From: Eledone cirrhosa
Taxonomy: Eukaryota
Direction of reading: 5' to 3'
DNA length: 64,000 nt
Assembly: GCA_964016885.1 (NCBI GenBank)
Contig: OZ024755.1
Span: 8,928,001-8,992,000 of the forward strand
Program-made: the position numbers and the translations under genes
Notes under the pieces: generated by a model
What the model was told of the DNA's origin: nothing
What the model saw: only the letters and a program-made list of their open reading frames with translations
Databases searched by the model: none
Shown here: positions 2,841 to 51,120 of the stretch, piece after piece
How positions within the stretch are numbered: position 1 is the first letter of the stretch
Layout of the letters: each line of letters starts with the position of its first letter

Positions 2841-3017
2841 GAATGCTTTAGTTTTATTGCTATGGCTATTCCTCATGCAATTAACGTACTGAAAGATGAT
2901 TATGGTGAGGTGGCATCAATGCATTACTCAATGCAAAAGAATCGTTCATATGAGAAGGAATCCAACTGTAGAAACCAAACTAATCCATTACCAACCAGTT
3001 TTGGTCTCAGGGACAAG
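2841..3017 (+). CDS. GPHN: GPHN exon: end of G domain and start of linker (ECFSFIAMAIPHAINVLKDDYGEVASMH...FGLRDK)
   Basis: Acceptor ttctag, donor AAG|gtaaaa, 177 nt, phase 0 to 0. Resembles human ECFQFILPALPHAIDLLRD. Confidence 0.9.
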
Positions 3018-5399: not shown

Positions 5400-5865
5400 A
5401 AAAATAGGTAGACTAGTTAACTGATATGGTTAGAGTGAATGATAGAATCATTAAGCTTAGACTAGTCCGAGGTAAGACAACAGCGACAATTATCTCTGCA
5501 TACCCATCACAGTCTGGACTAACAAATAAACAGAAAGAACACTCTTATGATACCTTCACAGCAGCTACTTCTTTAACGAGAGATTATGTTATAATCATGG
5601 CTGGATATTTGAATGGATATGTTGGTCAATGCTGGGAGGGCTTCCGTGGTGTCCATAGAGACTTTGGGTTCAGTACTAAAATGGAGCAGGGATCAGAGCT
5701 TGTGGGCTTTTACGATGCTAATGGTCTGATTATCTGCAACACAAATTTCAGAAAACGCAGCTAACCAATTGATCACCTATAGGTCTCATGAGCACAAATG
5801 TCAGGTTGATTTTATCCTCACCAGAAGCTGAGGTTGTAAACACAAAGACTCTTCCTGGGGAAGAT
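5400..5865 (+). mobile_element. RTE-clade LINE endonuclease fragment, decayed
   Basis: RVNDRIIKLRL..IISAYP..AGYLNGYVG..GLIICNTNFRKR*..LITYRS..QVDFIL: APE domain with stops. Confidence 0.85.
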
Positions 5866-5954
5866 TATATGAATATATATATATGGATATATATATATAT
5901 CATCAATGTCCATTTTTCCATGCTAGCATAGAAAAATGGACCTTAAATGGAGAT

Positions 5955-6019
<65 letters not shown>

Positions 6020-6049
6020 AGATCAAAAGATGGTTAAATGAGTTCCATG

Positions 6050-6120
6050 TATTTTATTATGCGCATTTCAAAAACAAACATCATCATGCAATAATATTTG
6101 TGTTTTCATCAGATAAAACA
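6050..6120 (-). ncRNA. Mirror-image hammerhead ribozyme copy on the minus strand
   Basis: Exact reverse complement of 6239-6309, in the left arm of the palindrome. Confidence 0.75.
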
Positions 6121-6238
6121 GGAGAACATGATATGAAGGCTAAAAAACACTTGTGGATAGTGCAGTTTTAAATCAACATATCCACAACATATAACTGCAC
6201 TATCCACAAGTGGTTTTAGCCTTCATATCATGTTCTCC

Positions 6239-6309
6239 TGTTTTATCTGATGAAAACACAAATATTATTGCATGATGATGTTTGTTTTTGAAATGCGCAT
6301 AATAAAATA
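6239..6309 (+). ncRNA. Type I hammerhead ribozyme (Penelope-like-element type, palindromic stem III)
   Basis: Stem I TGTTTTAT/ATAAAATA; CTGATGA at 6247-6253; ~16-bp stem II at 6254-6289; GAAA at 6290-6293; palindrome ATGCGCAT; AUA cleavage triplet ending at 6301. Confidence 0.8.
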
Positions 6310-6484
6310 CATGGAACTCCTTTAACCATCTTTTGATCTTATATTATGTATACTCCAGTCCTACAAACTGTAGAGTGCTTCTTATCCGATATCTGCATTG
6401 CTTTATTGTACTACAATAAAACTCACCTCCTACATATATATATAGCCCATGCTAGCGTGGAAGATGGACGTTAAACAAAGATGA

Positions 6485-6566
6485 TATATATATGTGTGTG
6501 TGTGTATGTGTAAATATATATATATGCATATATACGCACGTGTGTATGCATGCATATATATATATG

Positions 6567-6599
<33 letters not shown>

Positions 6600-6601
6600 G
6601 C

Positions 6602-27171: not shown

Positions 27172-27303
27172 GCCATGTTGATACTAGCCATGTGGCTAAC
27201 CGAGCCCGGCAATCACCATATAAAATGATTTCTGTTGAGTCTGCTTTGGACATAGTTCTGGCAGAGACTCCTGTTGCAGACATCACTAAATTTAAGTATT
27301 CAG
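27172..27303 (+). CDS. GPHN: GPHN exon: linker end and E-domain start (HVDTSHVANRARQSPYKMISVESALDIVLAETPVADITKFKYS)
   Basis: Acceptor ttttctcag, donor G|gtgagt, 132 nt, phase 1 to 1. Resembles human [24 protein letters not shown]. Confidence 0.93.
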
Positions 27304-27547: not shown

Positions 27548-28003
27548 CTTTTTTGTTTTATAATGTGGAGTTTATTGTTTGATGCTTTACCTGCTAATTA
27601 TTATATTTCTAGTGAAAGATACTGCCTATGTCTTTAACTATTTCATTATTGTATGTTTTACAAAAACCTAATACAAAAACAAAATACATATATATGTATA
27701 TAACATTAAATTAAAAGTCGAATGACATATATATAATAAGCATATCAAACAATTACAATTGTTTCATATGTTTATTTTATATATATATGTCAATCAACTT
27801 TTAATTTAATGTTAATAAATGTTCACATTTAATACTAAGGATCTTTGAGCTTATTTCACAGGTGATATGGCACATGCTTCTGATATTCTCAGACATGGCA
27901 TCTTTAATCTAATATTGGTAGTATATATGTATATATATATATATTTATGTGGTGTGAGAAATTTCATTTTGTCTTTCATTTATAAAATCTGTTTTGTTGA
28001 CAG

Positions 28004-46780: not shown

Positions 46781-48220
46781 ATGGGGATGGTACAGTTGAT
46801 AGCCTCTTAATGTGATTATAGTAGGTATACTTGTGTGTGTGTGTGTGTGTGTGTGTGTACATATGTATGTGAGTATCTCAAACAGTGTACTTGTAGTAGT
46901 AATGCAGGCAGTGGTGTAGATGTGTGTATGTGTGGTAGTGTGAGTGTTAGTAGTATCTTGTGCTAATAGTGATGTGTGTGTGTGTTTAAATATATGTCAG
47001 CAATGTCGGTAGTGTGTGGGGAATAGTAAATTTCAAGTAAATGACATATGTGTATGTATGTAAGTATATATGTGTGTGTGTATGTAGTTATATGTGTGTA
47101 TGTGTATATGTGTGCATGTATGTATGTTTGTGTCTATATATGTGCATGCGTCTGTGTGTATGTGTATATGTGTGCATGTATGTATATGTTTGTGTGTCTA
47201 TATATGTGGATGTGTCAGTGTGTATATATATATATATATCATCATCATCATCACTGTTTTACGTCCGTTCTTCCACGCTAGCATGGGTTAGACGGGCTGT
47301 CCTGTTGTGAGCAGTTTCCAGTCGGCTGACCTTGTCTTGCTCATACAGGAACTGATTTTGGCTTGATTTCTACAGCTGGATGCCCTTCCTAACACCAACC
47401 TCATTTACAGTGAGTGCTGGGTGCTTTTTTTTCCGTGGCGCCTTTACAGTGTGGGCTGGGTGCTTTTTTGCCGTGGCACCTCCACAACCAGTTTGCAGTG
47501 GAATGATAGGGACCCCAGTCCTAACATTTCATTTCTACAGCTGAGTAAACTGGAGCAATGTGAAATAAAGTGTCTTGCTCAAGGAAACAACACATCACCC
47601 GCTCTGAGAATTGAACTCACAACATTTCGATTGCAAGCCCAATGCTCTAACCACTAAGCCATGTGCCTTCACATGGCTTAGTGGCTATATATATGTGTAT
47701 GTATGTATATCTATATATATGTGTGTGTTTGTGTATCGGTGTATGAGTGTGCATATATGCGTTATGTGTCTGTATGTATGTATATGTGTGAGTAGAAGAA
47801 AGAGATGAAAGAAGCCCATTTCTTTTTCTTTTTTTCATTTCTGTGACATTTTTAACAAAATATCCTTCTTAGCTTGTAGTTTTCTATTTAACCCCTTTGC
47901 TTCCATATTTTAATGAAAGTCACTCCCTATGATTTTTAAATAACTTGGCACATAATCAAAAATTTGCTGGCAGTTTATAAAAGTAATCATTTTTCCCGTT
48001 ATTACATTGGTATGTGAAACAACTTAACATAGGTTATTATATAAAATGATAGCAGAAGAGTTTTAGATAAATATGTATACTTTAAAATAAATGGTTTTGT
48101 TTTGCACAAACAAATGTGTACAGATGTGTGGATTTGAATAAAAAAAAAATAGAAATATTTTAATTCAAATCTTCACGTCTGATGAGCAGATCGATACTGG
48201 AGTCAGGTCTATCATATTGA

Positions 48221-50003: not shown

Positions 50004-51120
50004 TATCTCACATGTTAGAAACAGCATATTGCACATATTGGACATGATATATCTTACATGTTGAACATGGTATATTTCACATGTTAGACACATATTGGAC
50101 ATGGTATATCTTACATATTGGACATGGTATATCTTACATGTTGAACACGGTATATTTCACATGTTAGACACATATTAGACCTGGTATATCTTACATATTG
50201 GACATGGTATATCTTACATATTGGACATGGTATATCTTACATGTTGAACACGGTATATTTCACATGTTGAACATGGTCTATTTCACATGTTAGACACATA
50301 TTAGACCTGGTATATCTTACATATTGGACATGGTATATCTTACATGTTGAACACGGTATATTTCACATGTTGAACATGGTCTATTTCACATGTTAGACAC
50401 ATATTAGACCTGGTATATCTTACATATTGGACATGGTATATCTTAGATGTTGAACACGGTATATCTCACATGTTGAACATGGTATATTTCACATGTTAGA
50501 CACATATTAGACTTGGTATATCTTACATGTTGAACATGGTATATCTCACATGTTGAACATGGTATATTTCACATGTTAGACACATATTGGACATGGTATA
50601 TCTTACATGTTGAACATGGTATATCTCACATGTTAGACATGGTATATTGTGGATATGGTGTATCTCACATGTTAGACACAGCATATTTCACATGTTGAAC
50701 ATGCTATATTTCATATGTTGAACATGGTATATCTCACATGTTGGGTATGGTATATCTCACATGTTGGGTATGGTATATCTCACATGTTAGACATGGTATA
50801 TCTCACATGTTGGGTATGGTGTACCTCACATGTTAGACATGGTATATCTCACATGTTGGGTATGGTATATCTCAAATGTTAGACATGGTATATCTCATGT
50901 TGGGTATGGTATATCTCACATGTTAGACATGGTATATCTCACATGTTAGACATGGTGTAGCTCACATGTTGGGTATGGTATATCTCACATGTTGGGTATA
51001 GTACATCTCACATGTTAGATATAGTACATCTCACATGTTGGGTATGGTATATCTCACATGATGGGTATGGTATATCTCACATGTTGTAGATGGCATATTT
51101 CACATGTTGGGCATGGTCTA
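50004..51120. repeat. 23-bp minisatellite array (~1.1 kb) with 103-bp higher-order repeats
   Basis: Unit atctcacatgttagacatggtat. Marker gacacatattagac at 50167, 50293, 50396 and 50499. Confidence 0.9.

Follow-up and report, generated by a model that had tools for sequence, protein, structure and literature searches.

The palindrome at 6012-6433 of the window, the stretch of 64,000 nucleotides analysed here from an animal genome of 3.0 Gb, is probably a short insertion of a young, high-copy Penelope-like element (PLE), placed head-to-head into a (TA)n tract of a gephyrin intron, with the two target strands primed separately on uncleaved sense RNA and with no function for the host. The locus itself is ordinary; its value lies in the family to which it belongs and in the testable insertion mechanism of that family.

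The insertion in the gephyrin intron and its parent element

Self-comparison of the window pairs 6007-6170 with 6190-6352 at 159 of 164 columns, bearing out the near-perfect palindrome reported by the first-pass annotation of this DNA; no further copy of the arm was found in the 64-kb window. The annotation speaks of such elements as often arranged tail-to-tail, which does not apply here: the 5' ends of the arms are joined and their 3' ends point outward, an orientation for which PMC3846280 uses the name head-to-head. The left arm (6012-6181, minus strand) is a fragment of the element's pseudo-LTR (pLTR) running from the -69 site at 6181 to a 'short' 3' end (-69 to +100), and it is 99.4% identical over 170 bp to the full-length copy L080. 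The right arm (6190-6433, plus strand), a pLTR fragment from -58 to the tail end at +187, matches the same copy at 98% over 247 bp. It is the only arm to carry the PLE 'tail' of about 88 bp (6345-6433, plus strand). In tandem copies the tail sequence forms the leader immediately before the ORF, and in L080 it continues into the ORF. The gap between the arms is an 8-bp filler (6182-6189) that resembles nearby arm sequence and may have been templated by it. A (TA)n microsatellite at 5957-6011, within a TA array at 5957-6019, and a short (AT)n at 6434-6444 would be the left and right parts of the target, as arms of this family end in (TA)n. Judging by its identity of 98-99% to L080, the copy in gephyrin is young.

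Both arms are intact through the predicted cleavage site of a hammerhead. A type I motif lies at 6239-6309 on the plus strand, and its counterpart in the left arm (6050-6120, minus strand; motif positions 6059 and 6106) is antisense in gephyrin pre-mRNA. The term 'double hammerhead' thus holds for one motif per strand and in no other sense. The flanks at 5915-5956 and 6440-6485 are alike in direct orientation. Coverage of 6446-6476 by other contigs is deep, and another short repeat may therefore border the target tract on both sides. Further upstream, 5417-5761 is a fragment whose translation resembles the AP-endonuclease region of a LINE ORF.

The placement in a gephyrin intron, also proposed in the annotation, was confirmed: the gene lies on the plus strand, with a G-domain exon upstream of the insertion and E-domain exons downstream. 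About 4.3 kb before the window start a G-domain exon matches gephyrin (E 5e-11), and E-domain exons lie at 27,991, 31,486 and 63,645, that at 27,991 being firm. The likely last G-domain exon before the insertion is 2841-2904 (plus strand, bounded by AG/GT, ending in phase 1), and the next exon found downstream is 27172-27303 (plus strand, starting in phase 1); the two are phase-compatible, further exons may exist between them, and both are presumably gephyrin exons by their likeness to that gene. Searched alone against the PDB, 27172-27303 gave no match. On the same contig, 13.8 Mb away, MoCF_biosynth (PF00994) matches once more (C15:22727127-22727252, minus strand, in L049); this match likely belongs to another gene.

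The annotation had assigned the motif to the type I hammerheads with a palindromic stem III that occur in PLE pLTRs, and had suggested a search for arms linked to a PLE ORF. The assignment stands: other copies are linked to an RT-GIY-YIG ORF, and extended copies of the arm run into a 3' UTR and ORF. The order in L080 is inverted truncated copy, partial pLTR, tail, ORF, 3' UTR, pLTR, tail and (TA)n, the textbook arrangement of PLEs (PMC8557442, PMC3846280), and pLTRs derived from partial tandems, an inverted 5'-truncated partner and an optional tail are all present in the family. Copies L057 and L075 each retain an open frame of 821 codons, about 800 aa from the likely start. The AlphaFold model of this ORF (mean pLDDT 76) has telomerase RTs (TERTs) as its top three structural matches in Foldseek, and its C-terminus is GIY-YIG-like (LIY...YFG, with conserved R, H, E, N and CxxC among 14 aligned proteins). 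Among atlas neighbours of the ORF, the families GIY-YIG, RVT_1 or HTH_animal are annotated, in most cases for fewer than half of the members of a cluster, with GIY-YIG on 26-50% of members in several clusters. Searches with the ORF and its alignment against Pfam and PDB sequences returned nothing significant, neither the RT nor the GIY-YIG domain being recognised.

A cysteine linker, CxCx5Cx5C, precedes the EN domain. A Zn-finger-like linker before EN and microsatellite targeting are both shared with the Neptune and Nematis clades, and YRDD is a mark of Nematis. The term YRDD is absent from PMC8557442, and the cysteine spacing found here is not literally the CX2-5CxxC of that paper and also recalls the CxCX5C of its Hydra clade. 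With canonical EN+ PLEs (PMC3846280, PMC8557442) the family shares the C-terminal GIY-YIG, the telomerase-like RT and partial tandems, and also an adjacent inverted, 5'-truncated head-to-head copy, a tail at one end, (TA)n targets and an Inr-like TCACT in the pLTR. It differs from them in the length of the tail (about 88 bp against 30-40 bp), in having ORF-less double-pLTR stumps as one of its main products, and in copy numbers that allow statistics on the ends, which favour two primings over self-priming. Two further features of the element may be mentioned. L057 has an Asn/Thr/Pro-rich, low-confidence linker of ~70 aa between RT and EN (L057:215-2614, residues about 580-656), which is absent from 13 aligned homologs and recalls the N-rich inserts of rotifer Penelopes (PMC3846280), and in the 3' UTR a stretch of ~220 bp is duplicated in tandem, the two diverged copies being about 80% identical and lying immediately upstream of the putative start site (L081:5980-6400). 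Near-identical pieces of the element were also found in contigs of a second organism (run X5).

Structure and variation of the hammerhead motif

Every hammerhead part named in the annotation was found in its place: stem I of 8 bp (6239-6246 with 6302-6309; TGTTTTAT at 6239, ATAAAATA at 6302), CTGATGA starting at 6247 (CUGAUGA, 6247-6253), stem II (6254-6289), GAAA at 6290 (GAA, 6290-6292) and the palindromic stem III (6293-6300; ATGCGCAT at 6293), with cleavage predicted after A17, that is A6301. The type I core is complete (C3-A9, G12-A14, A15.1-U16.1 and H17). Stem II had been given as 16 bp; it has 16 positions, of which 15 pair, as 3 bp, a C-U mismatch and 12 bp, with a 4-nt loop. The search with hammerhead models that had been suggested turned out negative, no Rfam hammerhead model matching the whole window at the gathering score or 5800-6600 at E<=10.

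We surveyed 65 distinct hammerhead variants from four family groups. The closing pair of stem II, earlier noted as atypical, is indeed so, being A-U or G-U in 62 of the 65 and G-C in none; a non-canonical 10.1-11.1 pair is tolerated in some natural hammerheads (PMC3088659). Pairs of stem II alternate among A-U, G-C, C-G and U-A, position 4 is unpaired in all 65 (C-C or C-U), the insert of stem III is mostly GCGC, AUAU or AUGU, and N7 can be any of the four bases in F2 variants. The loci with the invariant C·Y mismatch include 6254-6289 of the window and sister loci L150, L175 and L210, and this mismatch is a candidate tertiary-contact or protein site. Sister motifs, recovered by a descriptor search of the fetched loci, share stem I and the core and differ in stem II, and some of them adjoin related ORFs (39-64% identity over matched stretches). 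A pattern for the sister-family motifs has 26,186 matches and its control 0, core conservation among these matches being by construction, since the later patterns fixed the core.

Stem covariation among genomic copies, which the annotation had named as a check, was found in stem II. Among 15 aligned related representatives of the four family groups, whose kinship inflates measures of covariation, both sides change in 4 of the 6 proximal pairs of stem II. Double-change cells in stem II number 21, a value as high as which was reached in none of 500 shuffles and with slid controls lower, whereas the number of stem II pairs with double changes is no higher than in shuffles. Stem I varies on one side only, and the distal part of stem II in A1 is poorly aligned, with 41% paired. 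The covariation of stem II makes it likely that the hammerhead fold is under selection in the lineage of the element.

Compared with the minimal and atypical PLE hammerheads of PMC4209133, the motif shares type I topology, the location in the pLTR and a palindromic helix III predicted to act as a dimer. Unlike the hammerheads of that paper, it closes stem II with A-U or G-U where G10.1-C11.1 is conserved, lacks an unpaired base after A9 and has an 8-bp stem I, and its stem II consists of 3 bp followed by the invariant C·Y mismatch and a long distal helix. Folding predictions give stem III of the monomer a probability of about 0.002, even without the antisense arm, while two copies could pair stem III as an 8-bp duplex (-10.5 kcal/mol). 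Metazoan PLE hammerheads have been reported to show no cleavage as monomers and low cleavage as dimers (PMC4209133), and in another study PLE hammerhead cleavage needed the protein (PMC11167929). The motif likely serves the element through dimer- or protein-assisted cleavage, and this stem II variant, missed by Rfam and bearing the C·Y mismatch, is a defined substrate for assays of either kind.

Copies and arm ends across the genome

The arm is a dispersed repeat, with 40 of 40 scored candidates matching it at 93-100%, and the genome contains 15,163 exact matches to a 23-mer of the hammerhead, against 0 for the reversed control. The position-unbiased sample was the first 43 Mb of one contig (C1). 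Among the first 100 matches of the 23-mer, 62 sit in head-to-head pairs; neighbours less than 6 kb apart comprise 31 head-to-head pairs ('-+') versus 3 in any other orientation, same-strand neighbours within that distance number 2, and 18 pairs are less than 300 bp apart. Extrapolating from this one contig end, we estimate ~2,700 short double-hammerhead palindromes genome-wide. An exact, perfect palindromic centre is present at 621 loci. Opposite-strand hammerhead pairs 100-700 bp apart have been described in Schistosoma mansoni (Cervera and de la Pena, PMC4209133).

At the loci around these 100 matches we mapped 118 arms, with positions relative to hammerhead C3. Nearly all run into (TA)n, and their 3' ends fall into two classes, 59 at the tail (+187) and 57 at the short site (+97 to +105), with 2 elsewhere. 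The 48 head-to-head pairs comprise 44 tail-plus-short, 2 tail-tail, 1 short-short and 1 unclassified; that 44 of the 47 classifiable pairs should combine the two ends has a p of about 1e-10. The sister-family palindromes examined also have one tail and one short arm. In 31 pairs, arm differences were 1.7 within an insertion versus 6.3 between insertions.

The 5' ends are also concentrated: 48 of the 77 defined ones (41 longer arms being left out) lie at -71 to -64, at an Inr-like TCA-TAT. None of the 77 lies at the predicted cleavage site, a weak test, as only 7 of the sampled arms start past +16. Of 48 sister-family arms, 20 begin between 0 and +3 relative to TCA(+1)CT and none between -39 and -1. 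A DPE-like RGWYV is found at +27/28 in 23 of 27 long F2 arms, which are related copies and not independent, and was absent when sought at +27/28 in the family of the palindrome and in 5 F3 arms (0/5). The Penelope of D. virilis has an internal Inr/DPE promoter (PMC2377424), and an Inr-like TCACT has been noted in a rotifer pLTR (PMC3846280). We infer from the pile-up of copy ends that -69 is the 5' end of the element RNA.

An extra G at full-length 5' ends marks the cap in L1 (PMC11702581). Here the base before the -69 site is G in 2,329 and A or T in 2,417 of 4,746 non-C cases, and the template base before -69 is C in all 41 readable of 46 long arms. By hand reading, ~30 of 41 G junctions have another possible source (microhomology, or the partner's base) and about 11 do not, and in sister families a G stands at the start junction in 1 of 8. 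With other sources at most junctions inspected and so few cases in the sisters, a cap-derived extra G at -69 is only suggestive, and we downgraded it as proof of the start site.

Origin of the inverted arms

The mechanism that we favour would begin with a transcript starting at the Inr-like TCA(+1)TAT within the pLTR, at -69. The element protein would cut both strands of (TA)n, and of the two target 3' ends one would prime at the short and one at the tail site. Both cDNAs would extend towards the 5' end of the RNA, many reaching it, and the two cDNA ends would then be joined bluntly, by microhomology or with filler. Longer palindromes could arise by the same route from the downstream pLTR of a tandem read-through RNA. 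Double TPRT of this sort would account at once for the head-to-head repeat and for a tail on one side. In its strictest form, to which we give an even chance, it would be obligate: a dimer would prime both strands at the fixed short and tail sites of one uncleaved, capped sense RNA, and the cDNAs would be joined at the cap end. The genome would thereby have acquired thousands of perfect RNA hairpins of 170 bp, each with a variant hammerhead and some of them in introns, which together would form a large ADAR/Dicer substrate.

These ideas agree with biochemistry. PAc, a PLE protein purified from a Poseidon element of Anolis carolinensis, cleaves both target strands and extends them, with two internal starts bounding the tail and an uncleaved RNA as template (PMC11167929), which fits the double priming deduced here from copy ends; the two tail-bounding starts and the uncleaved template are shared, though PAc belongs to another clade. 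In that study the start site was alike for both strands. The rule of one tail and one short arm implies a coupling of the two primings, unlike such strand-indifferent starts. The excerpts of PMC11167929 leave the later insertion steps unvalidated, and contain no derivation of the inverted structure and no mapping of run-off to the start site. L1 twin priming (PMC11702581) likewise involves a second RT priming from the reciprocal target end, junction microhomology and an extra 5' G, but there the second priming occurs at variable internal sites by microhomology, whereas the two start sites of this element are fixed and its arms, as a rule, form an overlapping inverted duplication. The origin of inverted one-tailed PLE insertions is called unresolved in PMC3846280 and PMC8557442. 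In the literature covered, no account traces the head-to-head structure to priming of the two strands at two start sites.

The main competing proposal is that the inverted arm arises by fold-back, one strand of the same element priming itself, a route that the Discussion of PMC3846280 puts forward for rotifer Penelopes, with an antisense template. It would explain why the arms of one insertion share variants and why 621 loci have a perfect palindromic centre, although self-complementary ATAT annealing of two cDNA ends would also give such a centre. The ends of the arms put this proposal under strain. In the 31 tail-plus-short pairs with both 5' ends mapped (13 of the 44 pairs, with long arms, being left out of this ordering), 16 start together and in 6 the tail arm is longer at both ends, and these 22 do fit a copy made from the tail-bearing arm. 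The other 9 are staggered, the short arm reaching further 5' and the tail arm further 3', so that neither contains the other. Since fold-back needs one arm to contain the other, staggered pairs need two priming events. Four of the 9 have tail arms that start at +89 or later, a hint that one RNA was copied twice, and 2 pairs are without overlap. The insertion in the window is itself staggered, with its short arm starting at -69 and its tail arm at -58. In several families, moreover, 5' ends cluster at an Inr-like motif of the sense strand, which points to a sense template. The copy ends are thus genomic evidence against pure fold-back, which we regard as unlikely. Fold-back during assembly or library preparation is far less probable still: among the contigs listed none spans the whole stretch from junction to flank, but an artefact is made unlikely by internal differences between the arms, by the 8-bp filler and by arm ends at two fixed biological sites. 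Contigs of run X1, which may be the assembly's own sample, show many joints from 6175-6182 to other arm positions, the same arrangement recurring at further copies.

Two further readings were considered. In one, the ~430-bp unit would move as a whole, as a MITE- or retrozyme-like non-autonomous element. Copies of almost equal size are indeed numerous, and an exact centre is common to 621 of them, but junctions and 5' ends vary from copy to copy, arm variants follow the subfamilies of the autonomous element, and tandem arrays of the retrozyme kind are missing, with 2 same-strand neighbours under 6 kb among 100 matches; we hold this to be very unlikely. Non-LTR retrozymes (10.64898/2026.07.22.740005) are PLE-derived, non-coding and equipped with a type I hammerhead, as are the palindromes, but they form direct tandem repeats where the palindromes are single inverted insertions. 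A non-LTR retrozyme was rejected on the same ground, as head-to-tail tandem units were not encountered (2 same-strand neighbours versus 31 head-to-head pairs under 6 kb). The other reading is that of the annotation, in which a selected antisense arm, transcribed first, masks an active ribozyme in gephyrin pre-mRNA until editing or unwinding frees it. The masking part is upheld by prediction: the hairpin of the full insertion (-257 kcal/mol) leaves hammerhead stems essentially absent from the ensemble, and the insertion is intronic in gephyrin. A safety catch specific to gephyrin is not, the palindrome being a routine product of the family. As the 3' ends point outward, a polymerase coming from either direction meets the antisense arm first, so that masking is automatic and selection unneeded. 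Moreover, the architecture is genome-wide and symmetric (31 pairs in the first 100 matches; 621 perfect centres), the copy is young (98-99% to an intact element), a full antisense partner is missing at many copies, and stem III of the monomer is predicted to barely form (P about 0.002), and metazoan PLE hammerheads were reportedly inactive as monomers and weak as dimers (PMC4209133) or dependent on the protein (PMC11167929). Cleavage within an intron need not block splicing either (PMC4410947, citing Dye 2006). A selected catch at this locus is very unlikely as well. We also rejected a host-regulatory intronic ribozyme of the CPEB3 type, given the 15,163 copies of the 23-mer and the predicted P of about 0.002 for monomer stem III. 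In gephyrin pre-mRNA the hairpin is predicted to bury the hammerhead, as a by-product of the insertion, and it may well undergo editing or dicing as other inverted repeats do. The family lends itself to exact predictions in vitro, since its ORF is intact, its young copies number tens of thousands, its 3' ends are fixed at two sites and its 5' site is sharp.

Other repeats lie in the same region. A later gephyrin intron contains an array of a 23-bp unit with higher-order variants (50004-51117), and a tRNA-like Rfam match barely over threshold (47604-47661, minus strand, 29.7 bits) is possibly a remnant of a tRNA-derived SINE. The 100 kb upstream of the window also carry a solo F2 motif and another copy of the palindrome's family, and about 39 kb upstream (L041:800-1010) there is a double-hammerhead palindrome of sister family F3, again with one tail and one short arm.
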